Assembly (NCBI GenBank): GCA_025823825.1
Contig: GCA_025823825.1_4720.1
Source of the DNA: a phage
Direction: 5' to 3' (one strand)
DNA: 64,000 nt
The notes beneath the pieces were generated by a model. It did no database searches, had not been told where the DNA came from, and worked only from the letters and a program-made list of their open reading frames with translations. Position numbers and translations under genes: made by a program. Below, one piece after another: positions 6,141 to 40,574 of this stretch (positions are counted from its first letter, which is position 1; every line of letters starts with the position of its first letter).

Positions 6141-8621
6141 TTAAACGTCCTCGATAGGCAAAGGTTTAACAATCAAACGATTGAGCGGATTCGATAGACG
6201 CATACTGATAGGCTTATACGCAACATGATTCGTCTCACTTAGAGCCACTGATCTGAAACGACCGTTCAACCGTTTGTAAATCGGTTCTATCCAGAGACCT
6301 CGAAGATCACGTTTACGGAAACGTTGTTCGAACGGTTTGATTGGGGTTACGGTTAACCCACGCAACGACTCTGATGGCAGACGCTCACGAAGGTCGCGTG
6401 GTGCCCGACCTGGGAACGGTGCAAGCCACAAACCATCGAGCGGATTTTTACGGAAACGCAACGAGACAGGATCGCTAATGACTTGTGCCCAATATTGCGT
6501 ACTGAATCGAACGGTTTGGGTGTTCTCGTAACCACTACAATCACACCAGGTTGGTTTCGGAGGCGCTTCCAAACTTTCAACCGCCGATTCACGCCAGTTC
6601 GTCATCGGGTTGTTATCATGTACGAATTTGATAACTTCCGTAGCCTGGTTATCCGTATCATGAACGTTTGCCTGTGCCCAGTCTTCCCACAGTTCTTCAC
6701 TACCACTTACTAAACTCGAACCGAGACGAACGGCGATTTTATTTAGTGGTTTGATTGGGTCACTGTTGATTGTCTGGATAAAATGGATGGTGTAACTGCT
6801 CAATGTCTTAAGCAGCTGCAGCATTCCGTATTGAATATCCTTAAGACTGGTGACATCTTCCAAATCCTGGCCGGTGGCCTTTGTGAAGATATCGAGAGCC
6901 AGAATACCCGCCTCTTCTTGACTGATTGCGTCAAGCTCCCAATCCATCGATAAGAACCATTCCTTGTAAAGCTGTCCAATACCGAAGTCGACACCAACAT
7001 CCATGTAGAAGTTTTCAACGATTGCTTCAGCCATGCCTCGAGCTTGATAATGTTCTTGGAGCTGATACATGAACTGATGGCGACGCCAGCCCTGGTAAAT
7101 CTCGGTAACGGCGCTCAGAAACTCTTCAGTACTGACGACAGCACGCAGCGTCACTTGCTTATCCAAACACCACCAGATCAGTTTATCGGGAATGATAGCA
7201 GGATCGGTAATGCTACGGAGATGGTCGAATGTCGGTAGCGTTAACACCCTGACGTGGTTAGCATGGATCTTAGGTACTTCAATCAGCGTCATGCCCATCG
7301 AATAGTTCAGCAAATACAAGAACAGCTTGTATGCATCTTTCATCGACATCGTCATGGTATCACCCGTCACCGGGTTGGTTGTCGTTAACCGTGACTGATA
7401 CATGCCTATCGCGCTAAGATGAATCCATTCGTTCAGCAGGAAATCATACTTAGGATACAGTTCACTGTCTGTAAGGTCTTCGGCTTCACTTTCCAACACC
7501 TTGGTCGTTAAGGTATTGTTGTCATGCATCGACATCTTCTCTATCGTGCGGTTAAGCTCGGTATAATACTCCGCTTCGTTATCCCGCGCTAGAGGGAACT
7601 GTTGCTGCATCACGGTGGTGACCTTACGTCTTACCGTGCCATTACCGACGATCTCTTGAAGGTTAAGCGGTTTACGCTCCATGTAAACTGCGGGTTTTAA
7701 CGTCTGGGGTATCTCGGAAGCGTCTTGTTTGATCGAGAACGCACCGATTGGAATTCCACGATCGGTTAATACCTTTTGAATGAGCTTATCGTAGTTTTCC
7801 GTTCTGCCCATGTTTCTTTCAACGTAAGCGATGTTACGATAGAACCAGAGCATTTGGGATTCGGTCATGTATCGCTTGAATCGATCGAGACCTTGATGGC
7901 TTGCCAGATAACTCCAGATATGGAAGCTATGGGCATAATGGGTATGACAGTTTTCCCAACGAATACCTTTTATCATCTCAGGTATTTGTGTGAATAGGAT
8001 GGCGTATAGCGCAGGCCAATGAAGCATATCGACGCTCTCATATGCCGGATGTTCCCAGCGTCTGAAGTAATCGTCGATTTCTTGCTGTAAACGTGGAATA
8101 AGATTGGCCTCGCGTGACTCAACCTCTTGTGTATCGTACCAGAGAATCTCATGATTGCGTGCCGCAATTGCTTTCTCGATATCGATGGGGTTAAGGATAC
8201 CCAAGATCAACATACGTTGTTCCGGGTACCGCGCAATTAAACGATTGAAATAATCTCCACCATACGCGTATTCCCTTGCCGTCATGCGATGCCGTAACAT
8301 GTTTTCCTTGGTGAACTCGATCTCTTCGAGCGTATCCAGGGAATTTACGGTCATCATTGTCTGACAAGGATGATACTCGCCAGCGAGATTCATGTAGTAT
8401 AACCACGTGCGTGGGTCGTCCCCGACGGCCATCTGGTAGACTTCGGAAACCTTGAGGTTTAACCGTTCTGCCGTGATGTCGCTTTTAATAATCAGGGTGT
8501 CCGTTAGACGCTGCACGCTTTCCGAATAAAGCTGATAGTCAGTGTTGGACACGATCGGTCCTCCAAGGAGCCAGTGTAAATGAACGATATAAATAAAGGG
8601 CGCGTCGCCCTCGAACGTCAA
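6141..8621 (-). CDS. large hypothetical protein (~800 aa) with C-terminal triple R(F)RK-PLDGLW repeat
   Basis: Long ORF; track start overlaps the start of the divergent gene at 8580, so true start is probably GTG near 8552 (GGAGG 7 nt upstream). Confidence 0.7.
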   Translation of the reverse strand: MTFEGDAPFIYIVHLHWLLGGPIVSNTDYQLYSESVQRLTDTLIIKSDITAERLNLKVSEVYQMAVGDDPRTWLYYMNLAGEYHPCQTMMTVNSLDTLEEIEFTKENMLRHRMTAREYAYGGDYFNRLIARYPEQRMLILGILNPIDIEKAIAARNHEILWYDTQEVESREANLIPRLQQEIDDYFRRWEHPAYESVDMLHWPALYAILFTQIPEMIKGIRWENCHTHYAHSFHIWSYLASHQGLDRFKRYMTESQMLWFYRNIAYVERNMGRTENYDKLIQKVLTDRGIPIGAFSIKQDASEIPQTLKPAVYMERKPLNLQEIVGNGTVRRKVTTVMQQQFPLARDNEAEYYTELNRTIEKMSMHDNNTLTTKVLESEAEDLTDSELYPKYDFLLNEWIHLSAIGMYQSRLTTTNPVTGDTMTMSMKDAYKLFLYLLNYSMGMTLIEVPKIHANHVRVLTLPTFDHLRSITDPAIIPDKLIWWCLDKQVTLRAVVSTEEFLSAVTEIYQGWRRHQFMYQLQEHYQARGMAEAIVENFYMDVGVDFGIGQLYKEWFLSMDWELDAISQEEAGILALDIFTKATGQDLEDVTSLKDIQYGMLQLLKTLSSYTIHFIQTINSDPIKPLNKIAVRLGSSLVSGSEELWEDWAQANVHDTDNQATEVIKFVHDNNPMTNWRESAVESLEAPPKPTWCDCSGYENTQTVRFSTQYWAQVISDPVSLRFRKNPLDGLWLAPFPGRAPRDLRERLPSESLRGLTVTPIKPFEQRFRKRDLRGLWIEPIYKRLNGRFRSVALSETNHVAYKPISMRLSNPLNRLIVKPLPIEDV

Positions 8622-11911: not shown

Positions 11912-14470
11912 TTACTGCTCTTCACGTTCCAGCAGATACTCGGAAGCGGTAATACCGTTTACCGTACGTACTGCTTTCAGACGAGTATCATCGCTCAGAA
12001 TTACAGTAACAGATTGCAGACCTTTTACTTTGGTTTCGAAGGTCTTGAACACCTGATCCAGCATACGAGCAATGCTTGGGTTGGTTGCAGCCGATGCGTG
12101 AGTGTAACCGCTCTGATTCAGCTTCAGAATCTTGGCGTTGGTCGGTACGCGAACAACAACATGTGGGCGCATCGCGAATACGCTGTGATTGAACCAGTAA
12201 GCGTCGTTACTATCTTCGTCGGTAACGATGTCTGGATTAACACGCATATCCTCGACAGCCGCATCCGCCAAACGACGTTCGATTTCATCGGCGTCCAGAG
12301 AGCCATCTTTCTCCAGTTCTGCACGATACTCACTCATGGCAACCAGATGACGTTCACGATTCGCTGCAGATTTTTCGTGAGCGGCTTTCAGGTAGTCATG
12401 CATGTTGTACAGTTCAGCCATGGAAAGACGAATGTTCCACTGACCTTCGCCATCACGATTGCAGTAGAGACACTTCAGCATGTTGACCCAGGTGTAGTAG
12501 CAATTGGCGAATTCATCTTCAATGAACTTCTGGTCCATTTTAAGATCGTGAATCAGCCAACCGGACAGTTCTCCGATATCATCAACGAAGCTAGAGATGG
12601 TGGTTTCAGAGAAGTTCTTCGGTACGATACGTTTGATCAGCTTATTGACGTCTTTGGTCATGCTATCGTTCAGGAAATGCCAGATACGCAGAGGAATGAC
12701 ATCTCGATACTGTTGCATGATCTGACGATAAGCTTTGATATCGTCGCTACGACCTTTATCAATAGACAACGCATCCAGGAATTCATGGATTGCATCCAGC
12801 TCTTTGTCGGTATAGGTTCCCAGATAGGAATTGACGGTGGCCAGGAATGCTAATGCGTCGTTTTGGTTGACGTCGGTGTTGGTCTGCTGAATGATCGCCA
12901 CTGCAGCTTTAGTTTCAGCATCCTCAACGCTTGACGCTGCGATCGCGTCGGTGACGGTAAACAGTTTCATTTCGCGCTGTTCACCGACAACGATTGGCTC
13001 ACGCTGAACCGGCTTGTTAAGACTAACGCGAACAACTTCTGCTTGCGCGATACGATCCAGTTTTGCCATTTCCTGCTCTGCCATACGACGAGCGGTTGGA
13101 TCTGATTCAAGTTCGATGTATTCCACTTCTTCCTCCGTGAGGGATGTAATGTCAACAATGGTTTCATGAAGAATTCCGTTTTCGTCGATACGTGCCCGAC
13201 GAGCGAAGTGCCTGAAGTCATACAACGTCGGCCAACGACAATTAGGCGCATAGTCTTTGGCTTTCAGACGCATCTGCATAAATTCATCATGTTGAACAAC
13301 ACGACCGTAACGCTTAGCATCTTCGGTCGCATCAATTGGATTAACGGTCTTTGTTGCCGTAGCGGAACGAGCCGTACGAACCGGTTCCGGTTTCACCTGT
13401 GCCGGTTCAGGTTGAACGGGTTTCTGCTGTCCAGCCTTAACATGCCATTCTGGCTCTTCGTACTGTTCAGCAAATTGCTCAGCCGCTGCAAAGATATCGT
13501 TGATACCACCAATATCTCCTTCAGGATTTGTCGAGTAAATCCGTGGTTGCGGTGCCTCGTAACGCGGCGCTGTAGCAGCAGGTGCCTCATCAACGTTATG
13601 ATCGTCATCACCAACATCATACAAACGGTTGAACGCACAATCCTTCGAATCAATGTACGATGGTGTTTGTGGTTGGACAACCGTAGGCCGAGGTTGTGCG
13701 CCGTATCCTGGTGTTGTTGGAGCCATACCACGCATAACTGCCGGGTTAGGTTGGTATTGTGGTTGCGGGTAGGTTCCACCATACGTGGCGTACGCAGGCT
13801 GTTGCGGTTGACCGTATCCACCACCAACCATCGCACTTGCTTGCGGCCCACGATAAGTCATCCCCATCTGCATCACCTGCTGCTTCAAACCGCGTGACTT
13901 CTGAGCGATTTGCGCTAGGCTTCCGCTTTTATTCAGCTGCGTGTACTTATTCGCGGCTTCCGGGTTAATGCGTGATAATTCGATCGCGCGATAATATTCC
14001 GGGTACTGATTAGGTTCAAAGAGCCACGTTACAAGATGATACAGCGCAACTGTGCTCACAGCAGCAGAGACGATCTGGTCGTCGGACGCGTTCTGTGGCA
14101 TCGGGTTGATGTAAGAGAACACGTTCCAACAACAGTCTTCAACAAGCGATTCCATCATCATATCGTTATTGGTATAACGTGCGACGAACTCGGTTTGTAT
14201 TTTGTCTTGCTGAGCGAAGTCTTTCAGGACATTAAAGATGGCTTGACGGATTTTGACGATCGTCGCTTCTTGGGTGATGAAGTTATAGTTCTGCTGATAT
14301 GAGGGTTGTTGGTATTGTGGTGGTTGATAGGCGTTATTCGGGTATGCGCCGTACGGCGATTGCTGATACTGTTGCTGACGAACCTGTTCAGCCGCATGAT
14401 TAATCGTGCTCGTATAAGGGTTTTCGCTATAGCCCATTTGCTGATACATGTTGTTACTGCCATTATACAT
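11912..14470 (-). CDS. hypothetical protein (852 aa) with Q/Y/P/G-rich low-complexity regions
   Basis: Long ORF; N-terminus ...QQQYQQSPYGAYPNNAYQPPQYQQPSYQQNY... and internal GGGYGQPQQPAYATYGGTYPQPQYQPNP... Confidence 0.75.
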   Translation of the reverse strand: MYNGSNNMYQQMGYSENPYTSTINHAAEQVRQQQYQQSPYGAYPNNAYQPPQYQQPSYQQNYNFITQEATIVKIRQAIFNVLKDFAQQDKIQTEFVARYTNNDMMMESLVEDCCWNVFSYINPMPQNASDDQIVSAAVSTVALYHLVTWLFEPNQYPEYYRAIELSRINPEAANKYTQLNKSGSLAQIAQKSRGLKQQVMQMGMTYRGPQASAMVGGGYGQPQQPAYATYGGTYPQPQYQPNPAVMRGMAPTTPGYGAQPRPTVVQPQTPSYIDSKDCAFNRLYDVGDDDHNVDEAPAATAPRYEAPQPRIYSTNPEGDIGGINDIFAAAEQFAEQYEEPEWHVKAGQQKPVQPEPAQVKPEPVRTARSATATKTVNPIDATEDAKRYGRVVQHDEFMQMRLKAKDYAPNCRWPTLYDFRHFARRARIDENGILHETIVDITSLTEEEVEYIELESDPTARRMAEQEMAKLDRIAQAEVVRVSLNKPVQREPIVVGEQREMKLFTVTDAIAASSVEDAETKAAVAIIQQTNTDVNQNDALAFLATVNSYLGTYTDKELDAIHEFLDALSIDKGRSDDIKAYRQIMQQYRDVIPLRIWHFLNDSMTKDVNKLIKRIVPKNFSETTISSFVDDIGELSGWLIHDLKMDQKFIEDEFANCYYTWVNMLKCLYCNRDGEGQWNIRLSMAELYNMHDYLKAAHEKSAANRERHLVAMSEYRAELEKDGSLDADEIERRLADAAVEDMRVNPDIVTDEDSNDAYWFNHSVFAMRPHVVVRVPTNAKILKLNQSGYTHASAATNPSIARMLDQVFKTFETKVKGLQSVTVILSDDTRLKAVRTVNGITASEYLLEREEQ

Positions 14471-14504
14471 TTCTTACGATCCTTTTTATTTATTCGGTTA
14501 TGTG

Positions 14505-16304
14505 TCAATCGATTATGTCACGATCGTTAATTTCTACAATTTCTTCATCGAATCGACCGACGTCTTTCTTCAATCCTGCATTGGTTGCTGCAACGTCATT
14601 TGCAATTTGTGGGGTAATGATTAACCGACCACGTTCGTCGATAGGTGCGTACATACTGAACTTCTGACGTCCGGTTGGTTCGGAGTGTGGAAGATTCAGA
14701 TAGCTTGCACAGAACGGGATGGAACCACTAACCAAACGACTCTCGTCAGCCAATGCAGCACCGCCTGCGTTTTGGCTCTGGAGAACAACATGCGTGCTCA
14801 CTTTGAACAGCATGCAATCACCAGGTGACTGAATCGATGTTGCCACTTTCTCACGTTTATCACGATTGCTCTGGATATTGAGAATCGCTTCCGTTGCAAC
14901 TTGATTTCGCAACGCCTTCTGTACATCGCGATTGGTCATCTCTTTACGGTTGTTCTGTCGTTTACCACGTTCTGTGGTTTTAAGATGGAACCCCAGTTTA
15001 AAGATGCTCTTACGCACATCCTCCATGACATATTCCAACACCATCAATTCCTTACCGAACATCGTCGTGGTATCAACACGACTCATTTCGATAGTGACAT
15101 TGTCAATCAGATACGCCATAAATTCGTAGAAGTCGTCGCAAGGAATATTTTCCTGTTTGAACTTCTTCTGCTGAATCTCGTCAACGTAAAGATCGAGACT
15201 GTCGATGTGGTGGTTTACATCACGCAACAAACGTGCATCCGCGTTGTTGTTATTAAAGATAATCAAACCGAGTAATGTACGCCAATGGTCTGGCGCATTC
15301 GCGAACTCCTCAACCGGATAGTCTTCCGGAAAACGATCGTAATAACGGTCGATGAGATACAAGAATGCACCGACAAGGCCAAGAACAATACGTTCCGTGC
15401 CTCCACGTCTTACAGCAATTTGAATATCAGGATGTTTGTAACGTACAGCGCTAGCGCTACGGCTTTTACCGCTTTTGCTGATACTAAAACCTTTAGGAAT
15501 AACCCCCATGGTGCGATAGATTACCCATTGGTCACGCGGAAAATCACGTTCAGCAAGGTTCCGTCCGGTTACGGCTTCGACACCTGCAAAACGTCGGAAA
15601 CACTCACCCACACCGTACTTCGCAAAGAGATAGTGACCCAGTGTGGTTACGCTGGTGTGGTTGATGTTGTCACCGTTCACTTTACTTTGTTTGGTAAGAT
15701 GATAGATTTGTGACCAGGGTAATGACAGGTAATGACGATAATCGATACCGGTCGGTGTATCATTGCTCAGGAACTGATACGGCGTACGTTTAACCGTGAT
15801 TTTATCACGCGGAAGCATGATGAACGCCATGTCTTTCGTGTAACTGATTACGGGGTCAGCGAGTACCGCACTGAGAATGAAGTTCGCACCACGTAGACGC
15901 ATTTTACCACCCTGACCTACCGCGGGTAATAGGAGAGGATGTCGGATAATGCAGTAGTCCTTTCCTGGTTCACGACGGTCACCTGATTCCATCGCGCCGT
16001 ACCAGCGGAATTCCAGCATCACCATAAACACATCGGAAGGCGCAAGGTCGAAGGTCAGCTTACCGCTATCCTTCCCTTTGGTTTTCTTTCCTCCGCTTAA
16101 GTAGTGGAACTGTTCGCGGGCCATACAACGACGCAGGCCATGATACACCAGATCCTTAGGTAAACTATCTTTGCTGTTCCGCCAAAGACGATCAACATAG
16201 GACTCAACATCTTGCATCTTATCGACGACGATGTTGCGTGCTATCTTCTCGTTCATCTTCGGTGCAAGCTCAGCGACAGCTTTGCAGAATCTAGGATCCA
16301 TCAC
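14505..16304 (-). CDS. hypothetical protein (599 aa)
   Basis: Long ORF; no diagnostic catalytic motif recognised. Confidence 0.7.
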   Translation of the reverse strand: MMDPRFCKAVAELAPKMNEKIARNIVVDKMQDVESYVDRLWRNSKDSLPKDLVYHGLRRCMAREQFHYLSGGKKTKGKDSGKLTFDLAPSDVFMVMLEFRWYGAMESGDRREPGKDYCIIRHPLLLPAVGQGGKMRLRGANFILSAVLADPVISYTKDMAFIMLPRDKITVKRTPYQFLSNDTPTGIDYRHYLSLPWSQIYHLTKQSKVNGDNINHTSVTTLGHYLFAKYGVGECFRRFAGVEAVTGRNLAERDFPRDQWVIYRTMGVIPKGFSISKSGKSRSASAVRYKHPDIQIAVRRGGTERIVLGLVGAFLYLIDRYYDRFPEDYPVEEFANAPDHWRTLLGLIIFNNNNADARLLRDVNHHIDSLDLYVDEIQQKKFKQENIPCDDFYEFMAYLIDNVTIEMSRVDTTTMFGKELMVLEYVMEDVRKSIFKLGFHLKTTERGKRQNNRKEMTNRDVQKALRNQVATEAILNIQSNRDKREKVATSIQSPGDCMLFKVSTHVVLQSQNAGGAALADESRLVSGSIPFCASYLNLPHSEPTGRQKFSMYAPIDERGRLIITPQIANDVAATNAGLKKDVGRFDEEIVEINDRDIID

Positions 16305-16340
16305 ACACTCCTTTCAGAAAGTTGCTTAAGCAGATTAAAG

Positions 16341-17783
16341 TTACTTTTTCGATGACGCCTTCTCAAGAATCTTGAAAAAGGTCATACCTATACCGACAAC
16401 AGCCGCGGTTATGCTTGCAGCGGCTTTCCAAACATCGACGTTACGTTGACGTCGCGCTTCTTCCGCTTCACGTTGTCTTTTTGCCTCTTCATCACGTCGA
16501 CGTATCTCAGCAGCAAACTCGTCGTGCTTACGTTTGGATTCTTCGTCTCGACGACGAAGTTCAGCGACGAATTCTTCATGTTTGCGTTTAGCCTCGTCAT
16601 CACGACGTTTTAAATCAGCTTGATAATCTTCATGTATTTGTCTACGTAGATCATCTTGACGTTTCATTTCGGCTTGGTGTTGTTCCATCCTACGTTTTTG
16701 TTCGTCTTTAAGCTGATCGAGTTCGGCTTTATGTTGTTCATCACGCAGCTTTGCATCAGCGCGATGCGCCTCATGCATCTGTGCGATAACTGCCTTGTGT
16801 TCATCCGCCATACGTCGCATTTCAGCCATCACCCCTTTAAGGGTTTCTTCTGATGCCTTACGTTCGTAGCTACGCTGGTCGAAATCATTTTTGTAGGCTT
16901 CTTTTTGGATGGGGTCGCGCCAATGCAATGCCGACTCACGTGTCGGAAAAACATTGTACTTCCACATCTCTTTTTCCAAATCTTCGACCGGTACGAAGAT
17001 GGAGTCATTATTCCCGAAGGTAACCAACATACCTGGCGCGCCTGCTCCATTCGTTGGTTTTATTTCGAACGCTTTCCCCAACACGTTAACCCATAAGCTA
17101 TACGGATTATGAAAGTCGGGCGGCGTCCAATGGATAGTGAGTTGTGTTCCGAGAATCCGGAAACCCTCTGTTTTTCCCGTCAAGCTCCGCGCGCACGTTG
17201 CGATGTAGGGGTGATCAATCCCTTTCGTAACGTGGTCTGCGCTTTTGTATTCTCCTTTAACTTTTACGATTGCCACGTTGATTTGCGCGACATAAGCAGG
17301 TTGATTAAAGTTCAACGTGTTGAGGTCAATTTGACATATTTCATCCAGCGTATCGTACCAGTCTTGCTGGTCTAATAGACGCGGCATTTTCTCTGTGTTA
17401 ACAATACGACGGATATGCGGTTTCCTTATCGCATAACCTGTGCCGTTTTTAACACGGAGTATATCCCGACGTCTACCCGCGTAGACGAAGTTTCTGAATG
17501 CACCATTCGCATTAGATACGTCATGGCTGTCAACTATTACAGGACTACGAAATTTTGAACGTCGTACGATCCTGAATGTATTGCCGTCCTCAACCCTACC
17601 AGGAATGTACTGGAACATATTGTCGGAGGTGATAACCAACACGGTATGGCCAGATTCGTTAATACATGCCCATCCTAATTCCAGGTCATATAACGGTTCA
17701 GCATAACCGTCAATGCGATAAGCGTGCGTACCATCCCACGGTTCGAACGCGGTATCACATATTGGCATGGAGGGCATCGTCAA
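16341..17783 (-). CDS. hypothetical protein with E/R/K-rich charged helical repeats and C-terminal hydrophobic anchor
   Basis: ORF; probable ATG start at 17777 with GGAGG upstream; repeats RRRDEE(A/S)KRKH(E/D)EF(V/A)AE(L/I); C-terminal AAASITAAVVGIGMTFF. Confidence 0.7.
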   Translation of the reverse strand: MTMPSMPICDTAFEPWDGTHAYRIDGYAEPLYDLELGWACINESGHTVLVITSDNMFQYIPGRVEDGNTFRIVRRSKFRSPVIVDSHDVSNANGAFRNFVYAGRRRDILRVKNGTGYAIRKPHIRRIVNTEKMPRLLDQQDWYDTLDEICQIDLNTLNFNQPAYVAQINVAIVKVKGEYKSADHVTKGIDHPYIATCARSLTGKTEGFRILGTQLTIHWTPPDFHNPYSLWVNVLGKAFEIKPTNGAGAPGMLVTFGNNDSIFVPVEDLEKEMWKYNVFPTRESALHWRDPIQKEAYKNDFDQRSYERKASEETLKGVMAEMRRMADEHKAVIAQMHEAHRADAKLRDEQHKAELDQLKDEQKRRMEQHQAEMKRQDDLRRQIHEDYQADLKRRDDEAKRKHEEFVAELRRRDEESKRKHDEFAAEIRRRDEEAKRQREAEEARRQRNVDVWKAAASITAAVVGIGMTFFKILEKASSKK

Positions 17784-17978
17784 CCTCCATCAGATTGAAA
17801 ACTATCACGCATAATACATTTCCCTTTTTCTTGTTCTTATCAAGCCGACAGCCGACGGTTTCAGCATCGTTCCTAGCGCGAGAACGACCTTACGTGTTGT
17901 CTATGCCTTATTCATCGCAGGCGTCTGTCACCTAGGTAATGTAAGCGTCAAATTTTTTCTATTCGCAACGATAAACGG

Positions 17979-18026
17979 CATAGAAACCTCCCCCAACCCT
18001 TACGGGCTGAGGGAGGCTGACTTATG
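17979..18026. terminator. hairpin element, copy 3 (3' of the capsid-candidate gene)
   Basis: cata-gaaaCCTCCCcc-aaccc-ttac-ggg-ctga-GGGAGG-ctgacttatg; irregular inner loop. Confidence 0.5.
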
Positions 18027-18115
18027 TATCACGGTGCCGGATGAATGTCCGGTGCAATGAAACCATCCGCAACGTTGTCGTCAAGAATATCATCCAACGA
18101 AGCAGCTACGGTAGT

Positions 18116-20338
18116 TCAGTTAGTCTGAACCGGCAGCTTGATGTTTTCGGTGTAGACCTTACGCAGGTTCACAACGTTAATCAGACCCAGCAGCGGGCAG
18201 TTGTTAACGAAGCGGCAGCGCGGCTGAACCATGGTTTCTTTAGAAACCTGACCGTTACGGGTAACCTGAGCAACAGATACCAGTTCCGGTACATACAGGA
18301 ACATACCGAAGGTCAGCGGATCCGGAGAACCCTGGATACCACGAGACAGGGTCACGAAGATCTTATCGCGCAGCATGACGTTCGGGTTATCTACAACCAC
18401 GAAGTTGAAGCTTACACCAACGGTACGGAAATCGCCATCGGTCTGCAGGAACTGCGGGATGTAGTTGTCAGTTGCTACTACGCAACGCGGTTTCTCATCA
18501 GCGTTGGAAGACAGCAGCTGCAGAGCTGGCTGATAACCAGACTCGGAGTACATGCGGTATGCCATCTCACGAATCACGTTCATGATCGCAGCAGACACTT
18601 CAGCACGACGTTCTGCAGTGGTGGTACCCTGAACAGATTTCTCCAGGTCCAGATTGATTTCTTCGAACCACGGACGGATCAGGTAACGACCGAAACCTTC
18701 GATCTGGATGTCACCGAACTGACGGAAGCGAGAGGTCGCAACCGCTTTCAGTGCGTCTTTGTAGCTGAACAGTTTCTCAACCATCAGGTTGTCGAAACGT
18801 GCGTTAGCAGCTTGGATCAGAACGTCCAGGTCAGCAGCGTTTTCTTCCCAATCCAGCGGACGAGGAATGGAGAACGGAGCCAGCAGGCCGATTGCGTAAC
18901 GTTCTTGCTTCATGTTGAAGTCAAGGTGCTTACCGCGCTCACGACGGTTGCTGTTGTTACGGCGGATACGCAGTTCGTAACCAACCAGTTTGAAGCTCAG
19001 GTCTTCAGCCAGTTGTTTGAACTCTTCGCTCTTACGCGGTTGTTCGATGTTGTCCTGATCAACCAGGCGATACAGTTCAGCGTTAGCGCCGTTAACACGC
19101 AGACCCGCTTTCTCTACGTTGGAAGAACCGTAAACTTCGATCGCCAGCTGAGCAGCGGATTTCGCATCGATGATGTCCTGCAGCGCTTCAGCTTTCGCAC
19201 CTTTAACGTCTTTGGTGTTCTCATCAACGAAGATGGAGTGGGTGTCGAACGCCAGGGTCATTTTGCGGAAGTCGCCTTCCAGGGATTTCTGGAAACCGTT
19301 GGTGATCAGACCAGATACGTCGAACGGTACGTAAGAGGTTTTGCTGTGCTTGGTAGATTTGATTTCTACCAGGATTTTGGTCAGCGTGATCTGGGCGTCC
19401 AGCGCGTCGGTGTTGTCGCTGTAACCGTTAGCCAGAATGCTGTCGTCTTCAGCGATACCGATCATGTCGATCAGTTTATCAACAGCCAGGTAAGACGTTT
19501 TATAAGTTACGCCTTTAATTTCGATGTCGCGCGGAGCAACGATCGTTTTATCAACGAAGTACTGCGCGTTGGCATCGTCAGCACGATAGATCGGATGCAG
19601 ATCGGTCACGTCGTTGGACAGAACGTCGTTGTACATGAACGCATCCAGCAGCGGACGACGTACCCAATCAGCCGGAGTACCGTCAGCGTTACGACGCAGG
19701 TGGTTGAACACCAGCGGGCGACGGAAAGATACGTCGTAACCGATCTGGTTCGGAGCCAGAACGATGGTGTTATACAGTTCGTTACCCATGCGGCTCAGAC
19801 GAGAAGCCTTCACGTTGAACACAACGGAGTACGGCATCATGTCACGCAGTTCTTTCTGGTCGTAGGACAGCTGAACCAGTTCTTCAGATTCGCAACCGCA
19901 GGAATCAGCAGCCATCATGACGAAGTTAGAGCTGTCAACTTCACGACCTGACGGAGTGGTGCTGATGTTCATGGAACGTGCTTGTTTAGCATATTCTACC
20001 GGGTTACCATGAGCCAGCATGATCAGTGCTGCTGCACGAGCCTGCTGTGCGTTCATGGTGAACAGCTGTTCTTCAATACGCTGCTTCTCTTCCGGAGTGG
20101 TGGTTTCGAAGCCCAGCATGGACAGAACCGGTTCTTCGGCTTTACGGATGTCGCTGCTGAAGCTCTTAACATCCATTTCGTTAACCAGTTTGTCCATGGA
20201 TTTGAAATCAACCTTAGAAGCAGATTCCATAGACAGGAAGGTGTTCTCCAGACCTTTGTCTGCTGGTTTGCTACCATTAGCGGTCAGGAACTGGCGAGTG
20301 GCCGCGACCTGTTGGCTAAGAAGGGTTTTATCATTCAT
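18116..20338 (-). CDS. highly expressed virion protein, best guess major capsid protein (740 aa); tail sheath is the alternative
   Basis: ATG start with aagga RBS; strongest host-optimal codon bias in the window (CTG/CGT/GGT/AAC); size fits jumbo-phage capsid proteins; identity not verifiable without search. Confidence 0.6.
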   Translation of the reverse strand: MNDKTLLSQQVAATRQFLTANGSKPADKGLENTFLSMESASKVDFKSMDKLVNEMDVKSFSSDIRKAEEPVLSMLGFETTTPEEKQRIEEQLFTMNAQQARAAALIMLAHGNPVEYAKQARSMNISTTPSGREVDSSNFVMMAADSCGCESEELVQLSYDQKELRDMMPYSVVFNVKASRLSRMGNELYNTIVLAPNQIGYDVSFRRPLVFNHLRRNADGTPADWVRRPLLDAFMYNDVLSNDVTDLHPIYRADDANAQYFVDKTIVAPRDIEIKGVTYKTSYLAVDKLIDMIGIAEDDSILANGYSDNTDALDAQITLTKILVEIKSTKHSKTSYVPFDVSGLITNGFQKSLEGDFRKMTLAFDTHSIFVDENTKDVKGAKAEALQDIIDAKSAAQLAIEVYGSSNVEKAGLRVNGANAELYRLVDQDNIEQPRKSEEFKQLAEDLSFKLVGYELRIRRNNSNRRERGKHLDFNMKQERYAIGLLAPFSIPRPLDWEENAADLDVLIQAANARFDNLMVEKLFSYKDALKAVATSRFRQFGDIQIEGFGRYLIRPWFEEINLDLEKSVQGTTTAERRAEVSAAIMNVIREMAYRMYSESGYQPALQLLSSNADEKPRCVVATDNYIPQFLQTDGDFRTVGVSFNFVVVDNPNVMLRDKIFVTLSRGIQGSPDPLTFGMFLYVPELVSVAQVTRNGQVSKETMVQPRCRFVNNCPLLGLINVVNLRKVYTENIKLPVQTN

Positions 20339-20487
20339 TGAAAGTATCCTTTACAGAATTAACTTATATAAGTCGGTCGATAGACCATAGCGTACACGCG
20401 TGCATGCGCCACTATAGTATCAGTAAACACTTACCGTTATTGAGGTCGTGATACAACACTAAAAATGCCGCATAACTTTTCCCTACG

Positions 20488-21108
20488 TCATAAACGACGC
20501 AGGCGATAATGGATGGAACGATTGGTGCAATATGAACGGAACAGCGGCAATTGCGCAACTTCCGCAAGACTCATATTAATTCGCAGGTGTTCAATAACGG
20601 CGCTGTAGTTATCAGCAATACGATCGCTCAATAACTCTTCTGCCAATAAAGGAAGACAATCGACAACAATCGCGATCACATCCTCATTAACATAACGCAC
20701 CCGAACACTCAACGGACGTTTGTCTGGGCTGTAAGTTGGATCCGCCAAACGTCGTTCAATATCACGCGGATAGCTCGTCAGTAAATGGTAATAACCATTG
20801 TCATAACGATTGATGTACTCGCACAGCACATCAACATTCTTCTCTGGCGGCAAACCTGTTTCGTCATAGTGATACGCAAACATACCACCAAGCAGGTTGT
20901 TAAGATGAACTGCAGGGTTCGCTTGTTCGTGTTCTTTCGTGATGAAGAAAGGCACGTTTTGAGCTGCGAAATAAAAACCTACATCATTGGGCGATAGTAT
21001 GCCGAAAAGACTTTTAGGATCTAATAACACCTGTAAGTCATCACGCGCATTTCGAATGATCGCGTGTTCTACCCAATTCGGAACGACGAGATATCGGAGT
21101 TCCTTCAT
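20488..21108 (-). CDS. hypothetical protein (206 aa)
   Basis: ORF with ATG start and agagg RBS; divergent from the gene at 21148. Confidence 0.65.
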   Translation of the reverse strand: MKELRYLVVPNWVEHAIIRNARDDLQVLLDPKSLFGILSPNDVGFYFAAQNVPFFITKEHEQANPAVHLNNLLGGMFAYHYDETGLPPEKNVDVLCEYINRYDNGYYHLLTSYPRDIERRLADPTYSPDKRPLSVRVRYVNEDVIAIVVDCLPLLAEELLSDRIADNYSAVIEHLRINMSLAEVAQLPLFRSYCTNRSIHYRLRRL

Positions 21109-26697: not shown

Positions 26698-28063
26698 AAA
26701 CGGTTGGACGAACGGTGTTGTCTTTTTCTGGTGCAAGCCATAACGTGACCGTACCATGACATGTCCACTGTGGTTCACGTACAGAAGAACCTGCCATTGT
26801 AACAGCGCAATCGGTACGCATGATAACCCCGTATGCTTCGCAGAGATTGTTATCCTGCATCCACACAACTTTAGCAGGCATGCCGGGATACAACATATCC
26901 ATGTTTGCGTACTCCCACACCAACTGCATTGTCCTGCCGCGTAATCCAGCAGTATTACTTAATTCACGCCATCGGTTATCGGTTACGCGTCCCATCCCTT
27001 TCGCCACCTTCACGTTATCGCTACGTTCTTCAGTTACGTACTCGCTAACGTTTACGGTACGACTGATTATTGTATCGCCCCCTTTTGATAATGTCATTCC
27101 CTGACTCATCTGACTTGCCGAAACAAAACGCCCACCCGCATTACCTAACAACGAAGCCGCGTTATTGATGTCGCTTACCGACGCCCCTCTCGTACAGGCG
27201 ATTTCCACGTATTTGTCACGATTGATCCAGGTCTTGTCCATACCCGGAAACATATCGGCAGGATAGTTGTAAAAGATAGCCGTACGGCGACCATCAGAGA
27301 AACGGGTTTCGTCGTAGAGAGGATAAATATACAGATACGGGGATTGATAATAACAACCGACGTCCGCTGAATAAATACCGACCTGGTTCTGGATTTTGTC
27401 TACGAGATCCATTGCGTTGGTGCCATGCGGAAGAATAAGCAACTTGAACAGGTTGTCGTTATTCGGTGCAACAATGTCTACACCCTGCATTTTGAATCCG
27501 GTGTCAGCTTCGACCGCAGAAAGTATCTTGCTGAATTCGAGTCGTAACACATCCAGAACTTTCGACCCAGTATAGTTTTCACCGGTTTCTGATTGCATGA
27601 AGCTTTCAAGAACAGGATCGAACAGTTGAAATTGAAGATCGACCATTTGTTCGTAGTCTTTCTTCGAAGAATCGGTTGCGGTACGTTCGTCGTTAGCAGA
27701 CATACGACTGTCTACGGTTGTTAAACAAACCGCTCGGTAGACGTAAGCTTGTGCAGCATCGTCTACGGTTTGGCGTTGTCCGCGCATCAGGCTGTACGCT
27801 TGCACGATGATGCGCATTTTAAGTTGTTGTTGGTACGGTAAGATGTATTTTCCGTAACTGCCTGGCGGGAACTTTACAGAGATATAAAGTTCATCTCCTG
27901 CGTTACGTTCATAGTCTCGATACGTGTGGACTTGAGTCACTAAAGGAACAGACACCGTCATTGACGGCGTGATTAATTCCGCGGTGACTTTATACGCAAC
28001 AGCAACTGCTTCCTGCGCAAATGTACCGATATACCGTCCTAACGGCGTCTGTTTGTAATCCAT
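26696..28063 (-). CDS. hypothetical virion-type protein (455 aa)
   Basis: Long ORF, first gene of a five-gene run with overlapping/abutting stops and starts (26696-31912). Confidence 0.75.
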   Translation of the reverse strand: MDYKQTPLGRYIGTFAQEAVAVAYKVTAELITPSMTVSVPLVTQVHTYRDYERNAGDELYISVKFPPGSYGKYILPYQQQLKMRIIVQAYSLMRGQRQTVDDAAQAYVYRAVCLTTVDSRMSANDERTATDSSKKDYEQMVDLQFQLFDPVLESFMQSETGENYTGSKVLDVLRLEFSKILSAVEADTGFKMQGVDIVAPNNDNLFKLLILPHGTNAMDLVDKIQNQVGIYSADVGCYYQSPYLYIYPLYDETRFSDGRRTAIFYNYPADMFPGMDKTWINRDKYVEIACTRGASVSDINNAASLLGNAGGRFVSASQMSQGMTLSKGGDTIISRTVNVSEYVTEERSDNVKVAKGMGRVTDNRWRELSNTAGLRGRTMQLVWEYANMDMLYPGMPAKVVWMQDNNLCEAYGVIMRTDCAVTMAGSSVREPQWTCHGTVTLWLAPEKDNTVRPTV

Positions 28064-39233: not shown

Positions 39234-40574
39234 TTAACCTTTGGTATAAGCGTTAACGAGAGTATTGATAAATGAAGTCAGTGCGCGAAGATATTGGTAA
39301 GCGAATTGGTTTTCAATGCGGTTCTCTTTACCACAAAGCAGAATCGCGCGCTTAACGAGCTTAGGATAGATCTCGACATACGGTTGGTAGCTTGCGTCAA
39401 AATTCTGCTCGTTGAAGCGTTTCATGGTGATTTCCTGGATACGCTCCATGGTGCGAATTTTATTGCGAGAGAATATCTCAGAGAAAGCACGTCCGCGTTT
39501 TGTTACCATCAACAAATCTTTCGCGAACGTAAGTTGTCGAACGCTACGCAAATCGTCAGGTGTTGGTAGGACGTACGTTTCTGGATCGTTATCCCATTCA
39601 ACATCTTCAACGACAATATCCAAGTCGAGGTAACGTTTAACAGCATCGATGATATTGTCTTTTGACGCATCGAATTCTTTCAAGAAGACTGCACCGTTGA
39701 CGTAGCGGATGCGTTTCCCGGAAACCGTTGGGGTGATAACATCAGCACCTTCCACGGAACCGCGATTTTCCAGTGTCGATTTGACAGCGTGCAAGAAAGA
39801 CAGATAATCAACAGGAAGTTTTTCAACCTTATCTAAATGGAAGTCGATGATGTTTAACCCTAAACCATCAATAACTGAATAACCGTCCGATTTAAGGAAC
39901 ATCTGATTGAAGGTATCAATGTTGCTTTTCAGCGCGTCTACACCACCAACGTTGTTACGGTTAGGGAAAAGCGTCCGCCACTCCGCTTTAAACGCAACTT
40001 CTTTATTTTCCTCGTATTTGCCTTTGGGCATCTGTTCGAGGGCTGCAACGGCTTTCTGAAAATTACGTGTCTCGTCGTAAACAAGACGGGTAAGCTTCTC
40101 GAAAGCTGCTGCCAGTGTCAGGGCAATATCAACAATGATATCCCAGATCTTTTTCATGGCTTTTACAACGGTGTCCTTAAACCCTTCAACAACCAAAGCT
40201 TCTCCAACTTCAACACGATCGGTTGGAGCTAACAATGTTTCAGAGGGTAGACCCAAAGCAATCGATGCGGATTCTTGAACGTTACGAACCAATGCAACGT
40301 CGCTGTAATTAGCCGATTCGATAGTCGGGGCAACATCAAAACTGATTTCCCGTAATGCTTCAACAGCAGGGAAAGCACGATCAAGTGCATCTTCATGTTC
40401 GTCGATTGTTGCCAAACGTAATTCAACACCGTCCGCGTCGATGACCTCAGCTGTCGGTTCCGCAGCAAGCGCCTCAGCAACAATAGGATATTTTTCAAAC
40501 GCCTCAAGGCTGATATCGCCTTGCGACCCAAATAGCGGTATGTGTACCATGTGTTGTCTCCAGTAATGATTCAA
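39234..40574 (-). CDS. virion/head-type protein, paralog family D (~438 aa)
   Basis: ORF; track start is TTG, likely ATG near 40550 (MVHIPLFG...) with ggag RBS; SDVALVRNVQESASIALGL...VEVGEALVVEGFKDTVVKAMKKIW. Confidence 0.75.
   Translation of the reverse strand: MNHYWRQHMVHIPLFGSQGDISLEAFEKYPIVAEALAAEPTAEVIDADGVELRLATIDEHEDALDRAFPAVEALREISFDVAPTIESANYSDVALVRNVQESASIALGLPSETLLAPTDRVEVGEALVVEGFKDTVVKAMKKIWDIIVDIALTLAAAFEKLTRLVYDETRNFQKAVAALEQMPKGKYEENKEVAFKAEWRTLFPNRNNVGGVDALKSNIDTFNQMFLKSDGYSVIDGLGLNIIDFHLDKVEKLPVDYLSFLHAVKSTLENRGSVEGADVITPTVSGKRIRYVNGAVFLKEFDASKDNIIDAVKRYLDLDIVVEDVEWDNDPETYVLPTPDDLRSVRQLTFAKDLLMVTKRGRAFSEIFSRNKIRTMERIQEITMKRFNEQNFDASYQPYVEIYPKLVKRAILLCGKENRIENQFAYQYLRALTSFINTLVNAYTKG

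Follow-up and report, generated by a model that had tools for sequence, protein, structure and literature searches.

Nucleus-forming phages enclose their genome first in a lipid vesicle and later in a shell made of protein. This raises the questions of how the vesicle and the shell are connected and of which phage proteins touch membranes at all (review). Here we ask what gp040 may contribute to these events. The protein is encoded at positions 16341..17777 on the minus strand of a 64,000-nucleotide stretch of phage DNA (NCBI GenBank assembly GCA_025823825.1, contig GCA_025823825.1_4720.1; "the window" throughout), and its gene lies beside the capsid gene. An original prediction made from the letters alone had likened gp040 to a single alpha-helix (SAH) spacer that tethers a domain to a membrane, with a scaffold-like coiled coil or a lysis-related envelope protein as alternatives. 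The best-supported description of gp040 is a three-part, early, apparently non-virion core protein, in which a conserved head sits on a semi-rigid stalk, up to ~24 nm long, that leads into a C-terminal anchor helix. Our leading reading of its function, which we hold tentatively and at slightly less than an even chance, is a tail-anchored, stalked tether that acts early at the interface between membrane and shell.

Results

gp040 ends in a hydrophobic helix and a basic tail

Window bases 14000-21000 shared 99.1% DNA identity with Escherichia phage vB_EcoM_Goslar, a nucleus-forming jumbo phage. The protein was 99.6% identical to Goslar gp040 (YP_009820725.1), which carries the RefSeq label 'hypothetical protein'. 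The open reading frame (ORF) first proposed, 16341-17783, exists on the minus strand, and we corrected its start to 17777. The ATG at 17777 is the real start, giving a protein of 478 aa plus stop, because a Shine-Dalgarno GGAGG (17784..17788, minus strand) is spaced 6 nt upstream of it and the RefSeq start is at the same place. We rejected the TTG at 17783; it is simply the first possible start codon, and the GGAGG is too near to it. The coding sequence and its family were assigned from the ORF listing, the RefSeq annotation, a published core-gene table and hhalign comparisons.

The hydrophobic stretch and KK tail of the original prediction are both present. The hydrophobic helix AAASITAAVVGIGMTFF (residues 452-468; 16374..16424, minus strand), a putative tail anchor, is followed by the basic C-terminal tail KILEKASSKK (16344..16373, minus strand). 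The uncharged run of the tail was 17 residues long. The maximum Kyte-Doolittle (KD) value over 19-mers was 1.76 at residues 453-471, above the usual threshold of 1.6, and the best value elsewhere in the protein (residues 1-430) was 0.82. The KD scale would allow the segment to be transmembrane (TM); on the translocon scale the Hessa-scale sum was +1.35 kcal/mol, a marginal value. The segment was the single one of its kind in gp040 and lay within ~30 residues of the C-terminus; on the KD scale the protein showed neither a signal peptide nor a second TM segment. Of the window's 50 non-overlapping ORFs with a length of 80 aa or more, gp040 alone had such a segment at most 16 aa from the C-terminus.

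We compared the tail with that of ElaB from E. coli, which RefSeq describes as a tail-anchored inner-membrane protein. Both proteins have a cytoplasmic helical N-terminal part, a Trp-led, Gly/Ala-rich C-terminal helix and a basic end, and their KD values were close (1.85 for ElaB, 1.76 for gp040). ElaB differs in its size (101 aa), has neither a large head nor a long stalk, and bears no sequence relationship to gp040. The Hessa-scale sum was also more favorable for ElaB (−0.25 kcal/mol), and membrane insertion of gp040 is only predicted. Further bacterial tail-anchored inner-membrane proteins of this kind are YqjD and YgaM.

The hydrophobic tail is carried on a charged helical stalk

AlphaFold2 modeled residues 289-475 as a single unbroken helix, with a predicted local distance difference test (pLDDT) score of 80-93 across residues ~330-470. 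Charged residues (D/E/K/R) made up 52% of residues 289-450. In the same region, opposite-charge pairs were in excess at i/i+4 (41 versus 21.8±3.7 in shuffled sequences, z 5.2) and at i/i+3 (46 versus 22, z 6.3), and like-charge pairs at i/i+4 were depleted (8 versus 21.5, z −3.7). The best-register a/d occupancy of the whole helix was 0.30, compared to 0.25±0.03 in shuffles. This charge-pair pattern is the signature of a charged single alpha-helix and not of a coiled coil.

Charge fraction and best-register a/d occupancy, computed per 28-aa window of the protein, distinguished two parts of the helix. Residues ~296-345 (16743..16892, minus strand) form a less charged neck with a heptad-like a/d occupancy of 0.62-0.88, which may be a short coiled coil or may pack against the head. 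Residues 346-450 (16428..16742, minus strand) form a highly charged stalk that is SAH-like in its charge pattern and AlphaFold model and would be ~16 nm long if fully helical. In this part the D/E/K/R fraction was 0.50-0.71 and a/d occupancy just 0.25-0.50, with no hydrophobic seam, and the pLDDT of the modeled helix was about 90. The ~120 near-pure charged residues first described are therefore found at residues ~346-450 and not in the neck, and heptad-like character is limited to the neck.

Charged SAH domains occur in the lever arms of myosin VI and myosin X and in caldesmon. Residues 346-450 of gp040 have in common with such domains a high content of E, K and R, an excess of opposite-charge pairs at i/i+4 and i/i+3, a depletion of like-charge pairs and the lack of a seam. 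The first ~50 residues of the gp040 helix, being heptad-like, differ from an SAH domain, and the likeness lies in sequence statistics and a predicted helix.

A long helical region beside the capsid gene might also belong to a soluble, scaffold-like coiled coil, and a single hydrophobic segment is a feature of many holins and spanins, which would suit a lysis or envelope protein. The charged part of gp040 has none of the heptad seam that a coiled-coil scaffold would lead one to look for. Its hydrophobic segment stands at the C-terminus, behind a cytoplasmic part of 450 aa, which is not the arrangement of spanins or holins.

Three tandem 18-aa units occupy residues 390-443 (16449..16610, minus strand; regular-expression and Tandem Repeats Finder (TRF) searches). 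They start at residue 390 (KRRDDEAKRKHEEFVAEL), residue 408 (RRRDEESKRKHDEFAAEI) and residue 426 (RRRDEEAKRQREAEEARR). Of the three repeats originally counted, two are good 18-aa copies and the third is half-degenerate. At the DNA level, TRF reported a 54-nt period with 2.4 copies and 69% matches at 16479-16607. Sparse F/V/L patches recur every 18 residues, or five helical turns, and could permit weak self-association. Goslar-like relatives were 460, 478, 489 or 507 aa long, and the differences came from indels of 11 and 18 residues in the helix, which correspond to ≈3 and exactly 5 helical turns. The indel sites were in the repeat region and just upstream of it. An alignment of these Goslar-like proteins showed that the head and the tail were near-invariant.

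gp040 belongs to the core gene family cg35

Profile comparison, synteny and architecture together show that gp040 belongs to the Chimalliviridae core gene family cg35. The core-gene table of Prichard et al. equates Goslar gp040, PhiKZ gp122 and RAY gp001 as cg35, labeled 'hypothetical'. Further members are 201phi2-1 gp202 and PhiPA3 gene 138 (YP_009217217.1), the latter annotated as similar to PhiKZ gp122 and 201phi2-1 gp202; in the PhiPA3 accession series, YP_009217215.1 is gene 136, the capsid gene. hhalign matched the Goslar group to a profile of ten other syntenic orthologues (98.9%, E 3.4e-17, 226 columns, residues 27-289) and to a PhiKZ-clade profile (88.6%, E 2.7e-6). The members from PhiKZ, PhiPA3, 201phi2-1 and RAY have the same head homology, gene position and three-part layout as gp040, and none had a function assigned to it in the databases and papers searched.

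The family is highly diverged, with ~15-20% identity between the Goslar-type proteins and other members. The direct match of gp040 to phrog_7727 was weak (E 4e-5), and the orthologues were spread over three cross-matching PHROGs (7727, 7286 and 15024), all of no assigned function. The output of word-indexed protein searches was limited to 14 proteins from Goslar-like phages, with identities of 83% or more, and to three proteins related to one of an Erwinia phage. HMMER searches against 1.84 billion cluster representatives added just two proteins, at ~31% identity. Both have a head, a charged helix, a hydrophobic C-terminus and a basic end, and both sit between a PhiKZ-type capsid gene and an nvRNAP-like gene of ~600 aa (nvRNAP, non-virion RNA polymerase). 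An IMG/VR scan found three Goslar-like contigs and no others.

The gene order in the window was gp041 (capsid), gp040, gp039. The upstream neighbor, gp041, encodes the major head protein (Pfam PhiKZ_MCP, PF25620, E 5e-218). The downstream neighbor, gp039 (14505..16301, minus strand), begins after a gap of 39 nt and encodes the nvRNAP beta subunit, the orthologue of PhiKZ gp123. This assignment came from its match to phrog_2943 (E 7e-120), its place in the core gene set (cg36) and its early behavior in RNA-seq; RefSeq annotates it as 'polymerase'. The same order of capsid gene, cg35 and nvRNAP subunit was observed in 15 of the 16 other genomes or contigs sampled. RAY was the exception: there cg35 adjoins the nvRNAP subunit, and the capsid gene is found at the opposite end of the linear record. 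Wherever the full neighborhood was covered, the order helicase, gp42-like gene, capsid gene, cg35, nvRNAP subunit was kept. The loci available for PhiPA3, PS119XW, Phabio and RAY were shorter; all four have cg35 next to the nvRNAP subunit, and the first three also show cg35 downstream of the capsid gene.

We considered whether PhiKZ gp121 and gp122 might together be a split gp040, and rejected this. The N-terminal N-E-S-x-H of gp122 aligns to gp040 residues 40-44, and hhalign places gp122 against gp040 from residue ~44 onward.

Most cg35 members have a tail-anchor-like C-terminus

We surveyed the tails of 17 orthologues from diverse chimalliviruses and scored the uncharged run in 14 of them. 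In 12 of the 17, the top hydrophobic 19-mer lay 0-16 residues from the C-terminus and had a KD of at least 1.56. The uncharged run was 16-17 residues long in 11 of the 14 and 13 residues long in one more. Lysines flanked most of the segments on both sides, and a Trp or Pro frequently stood before them. Pairwise identity was ~13% in the tail segments and ~20% in the conserved head core. Because length and hydrophobicity are nearly constant and positions are not conserved, the tail has the pattern expected of a lipid-facing anchor and not of a specific protein interface.

The tails of the PhiKZ clade and RAY were amphipathic with a basic end, for example ...SVLDFMGELAKADSILEKLFKKR, and the C-terminal helix of the PhiKZ clade is degraded to an amphipathic helix. 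Ends comparable to that of gp040 were SILEKLFKKR in PhiPA3 and KFVEKIAGK in a metagenomic relative. The linker also varied. That of Goslar was the longest at 169 aa, compared to 33-126 aa in the others, and it carries the 18-aa repeats. In the Goslar lineage a conserved linker has thus been expanded into the charged repeat helix, which is no conserved ruler.

The amphipathic tails raise the alternative that the C-terminal helix is a protein-protein element, held in the ChmA/ChmB lattice of the nuclear shell or in a stalk bundle, with the head projecting into the cytoplasm as a filament would from the outer face of the phage nucleus. Such a head might capture, for example, ribosomes, mRNA, imported cargo or capsids. 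This would agree with the tails of the PhiKZ clade and RAY, as the family is core all the same, and an end motif, h-h-E-K-h-x-x-K-K, is common to the Goslar-type and PhiPA3-type tails. Set against it are the 12 tails that are lysine-bracketed and transmembrane-like, with their narrow range of run lengths, and the closeness of the gp040 tail to that of the verified tail-anchored protein ElaB. The low identity of the tails also argues against a docking peptide, which should conserve positions.

gp040 is an early gene and the capsid gene is late

We used published Goslar RNA-seq data for a ChmA knock-down, which arrests infection at the stage of the vesicle of early phage infection (EPI). The log2 fold changes of gp040 were +0.94, +1.09 and +0.85, and those of gp039 and gp038 were about equal. 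The capsid gene gp041 was strongly reduced (log2 fold changes −4.0, −3.9 and −4.4), as were gp042 and gp043. Read counts stepped ~20-fold between gp041 and gp040 under ChmA knock-down. The authors of the dataset reported that the knock-down profile matches the early program driven by the injected virion polymerase. These data show that gp040 is early and co-regulated with gp039, and that the capsid gene is late. The original prediction had placed gp040 directly downstream of the capsid gene; the adjacency is true, but the two genes are of different temporal classes, and the adjacency is misleading as a sign of co-regulation.

A GC-rich hairpin, CCTCCCTCAGCCC-GTAA-GGGTTGGGGGAGG followed by TTT (17987..18016, minus strand), lies ~100 nt after the capsid gene stop. 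It has a 15-pair stem, and RNAfold gave −43 kcal/mol for the 101-nt segment. The hairpin is a probable terminator that separates the late capsid unit from the early gp040-gp039-gp038 unit. If so, the early promoter must lie between the hairpin and gp040. In the Goslar reference, gp040 and the early gene gp047 have a 9-mer, AGACAACAC, in common in their upstream regions. This 9-mer occurred three times in the window (17894-17902, 26715-26723 and 40551-40559, minus strand) versus 0.6 expected, and the copy upstream of gp047 was not among these three exact matches. The 9-mer is at most a weakly supported candidate for part of an early promoter. A sigma-70 promoter and terminator scan was uninformative, and it missed the capsid-gene hairpin.

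Similar GC-rich hairpins with GGGTTGGG(G/A)GAGG were observed at late/early gene boundaries, namely after the capsid gene and before gp047 (locus L001, ~16455-16490). The gp047 hairpin stands directly in front of the gene and ends 3 nt before the start codon, so that no promoter could fit in between.

gp040 was not found in the available part of the Goslar virion mass-spectrometry table, which lists gp039 at ~0.1 copy per virion. As far as this part of the table goes, gp040 appears not to be packaged in the virion.

These results bear on a second alternative, in which membrane-anchored gp040 would mark prohead start sites on the inner membrane and stay behind when capsids leave for the nucleus. 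Such a procapsid platform would be a functional counterpart of membrane-bound T4 head initiation. In the 16 loci with a capsid gene, cg35 directly follows that gene or is separated from it by one small extra ORF; chimallivirus capsids have been reported to assemble on the inner membrane (review); and the available part of the virion table, with no gp040 found, fits a protein that stays behind. The timing does not fit, because gp040 is in the early, nucleus-independent class, the capsid, portal and tail genes are late, and a strong hairpin lies between them.

The early timing also weighs against a scaffold or lysis protein, for which late expression would be expected. No endolysin or spanin gene was found nearby; the neighbors are the capsid gene, the nvRNAP subunit gene and a helicase gene. 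In addition, cg35 is a family-wide core gene beside an RNA polymerase subunit. Taken with the missing heptad seam of the charged part and with gp040 not being found in the available part of the virion table, the scaffold and lysis alternatives of the original prediction fit poorly, and we regard them as very improbable.

Published data place the PhiPA3 orthologue near the nuclear shell

PhiPA3 gene 138 was recovered in both ChmA-GFP and ChmB (gp2)-GFP pulldowns and by ChmA-miniTurboID labeling (Enustun et al.). PhiPA3 gp358 was recovered in the same three experiments, and the roles of both proteins were left unassigned (Enustun et al.). The labeling by ChmA-miniTurboID and the joint recovery with ChmA and ChmB favor a helix held within the shell, as does the composition of the phage nucleus, which has no lipid. 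Weighed with the tail survey, we consider this shell-anchored arrangement unlikely, and still the most serious of the competing explanations.

The ChmB pulldown was dominated by capsid proteins, and the presence of the PhiPA3 orthologue among them is also a point for the procapsid platform. Data from PhiKZ point away from such a platform. Antisense knock-down of PHIKZ122 was one of the few reported to affect phage transcription strongly at 30 min; knock-down of the capsid gene belonged to that RNA-seq set and was not named among those with strong transcription effects. Overall, we think it improbable that gp040 is a procapsid assembly platform.

Other PhiKZ data concern the need for gp122. Transposon reads in PHIKZ122 were 0 and 10 in two tables, compared to ~8,600 for PHIKZ125, and PHIKZ120 to PHIKZ124 had essentially no transposon insertions. 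Both antisense oligomers against PHIKZ122 gave a weak plaque reduction, and there was a weak reduction in the ChmA level. gp123 begins 9 nt after the end of gp122 in PhiKZ. PhiKZ gp122 is therefore either essential or upstream of an essential gene. The supplement of the PhiKZ co-fractionation proteomics had no gp122 entry.

The head domain defines the family

The N-terminal globular head comprises residues 1-288 (16914..17777, minus strand) and is the family-defining part, as judged from alignments and from the hhalign match. The alignments showed conserved N-E-S-x-H, HPY, h-N-h-x-G and G-h-F-x-T-x-E-A motifs. Searches of Pfam and NCBIfam and a profile search of PDB sequences found no relatives of gp040 or of its head; the sole PDB matches were chance hits to ISY1 (E 0.16). 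AlphaFold2 gave a mean pLDDT of 49.7 for the full-length protein with 8 close relatives, and of 39.6 for residues 1-320 with 10 sequences including relatives of 20-30% identity. In both runs the head was mostly below 50, with block means of 23-56. The heads of the orthologues were neutral to acidic (pI 4.9-7.8), and on this ground we rejected nucleic-acid binding by the head.

Additional observations on neighboring genes and related phages

Downstream of gp039, gp038 (11912-14470, minus strand) encodes a protein of 852 aa. The N-terminal residues 1-70 are prion-like (Q 21%, Y 16%, N 13%, P 9%), and residues ~200-400 have a high content of P, A, Q and G. Pfam, PHROGs and NCBIfam gave no family match for gp038. 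Its syntenic counterpart in PhiKZ is gp124, to which BLAST gave only a weak match (E 5e-4). Knock-down of PhiKZ gp124 also perturbs transcription, and transposon insertions in gp124 are almost absent.

In Pseudomonas chimalliviruses an additional small ORF separates the capsid gene from cg35; Goslar has none. We observed such ORFs as PhiKZ gp121 (locus L008, 15709-16161), PhiPA3 gene 137 (locus L017, 699-1232), and at 6855-7301 of locus L014 and 754-1161 of locus L019. The extra ORF overlaps the cg35 start in another frame, by 44 nt in PhiKZ and 32 nt in PhiPA3. The extra ORFs of PhiKZ, PhiPA3 and Noxifer finish in a similar short hydrophobic motif. An N-terminal hydrophobic segment was present in Noxifer gp123 and in no other of these small ORFs. 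We rejected the idea that the small ORFs of the PhiKZ clade supply an anchor in trans, as none apart from Noxifer gp123 has a hydrophobic segment.

Near-identical copies of gp040 are filed under assemblies of Salmonella enterica and E. coli O157. Some of these copies are on contigs of ~244 kb, the size of a whole phage genome. Goslar-like phages thus seem to be carried along in the sequencing of bacterial isolates.

Discussion

The view of gp040 as an SAH spacer that tethers a domain to a membrane stands as far as the architecture is concerned. It is borne out by the charge statistics, by the AlphaFold helix, by the tails of most orthologues and by the likeness to ElaB. It is less secure at the membrane itself, given a tail that is marginal on the translocon scale and the non-transmembrane tails of the PhiKZ clade and RAY.

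Several observations weigh against a membrane-to-shell tether. The first concern the tail of gp040: over its 17 residues the Hessa-scale sum of +1.35 kcal/mol is only marginally hydrophobic, and the flank on the C-terminal side of the segment is more basic than the N-terminal flank. In 5 of the 17 orthologues (PhiKZ, PhiPA3, PS119XW, Phabio and RAY) the tail contains D, E or K and cannot span a bilayer, and the PhiPA3 protein, which is the source of the shell-proximity data, is one of these. The phage nucleus is without lipid, so a membrane anchor must be made to fit ChmA labeling at 45 min post infection. With capsid proteins dominating the ChmB pulldown, the PhiPA3 protein could have been associated through procapsids or docked capsids rather than through the shell. 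The knock-down and transposon phenotypes of PhiKZ may be polar effects on the essential nvRNAP gene gp123. Linker length varies between 33 and 169 residues over the family, hence no fixed distance is measured. Finally, the low pLDDT of the head offers no structural support for a partner.

With these points in mind, we propose the following sequence of events for a tail-anchored gp040. The uncharged, lysine-bracketed C-terminal helix of 17 residues would insert post-translationally into a bilayer that faces the cytoplasm, which may be the inner membrane, the EPI vesicle or both. The helix of ~160 residues, made up of the heptad-like neck and ~105 residues of charged SAH, would then serve as a semi-rigid stalk that carries the conserved head as far as ~24 nm off the membrane. 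This head would engage the phage nuclear shell or the early shell assembly machinery, so that gp040 would tether membrane to shell. We infer three of these steps: the insertion itself, the membrane that is used and the partner of the head.

In its overall plan, such a protein would resemble golgins such as giantin and the KASH/nesprin linkers of the nuclear envelope, which also have a C-terminal anchor, a long rod and a distal head. The resemblance is one of analogy only. The rods of golgins and nesprins are coiled coils or spectrin repeats, and these eukaryotic proteins have no homology to gp040.

A more specific form of the tether would place cg35 in the early phage infection vesicle or in the adjoining inner membrane. 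There it would dock the nascent ChmA/ChmB shell via the stalk and so enable both the hand-over of the genome, out of the lipid compartment into the protein one, and the switch to transcription by nvRNAP. We put this forward as a long shot.

cg35 was already catalogued as a core gene with no assigned function, and its PhiPA3 member had been flagged as shell-associated. What is new is that most cg35 members join a tail-anchor-like helix with a helical stalk, and that the stalk of Goslar is an expanded, SAH-like one. In full-text searches of the literature, no paper connected Chimalliviridae with transmembrane or tail-anchored proteins, and none mentioned Goslar gp40. Recognizing a tail anchor on a stalk gives this anonymous core gene a specific hypothesis in a tractable host, E. 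coli infected with Goslar. Should the membrane reading fail, these features still describe a stalked component of the nuclear shell that is new. If the docking reading is true, cg35 would supply the physical link that is missing between the lipid and the protein compartment of chimallivirus infection.

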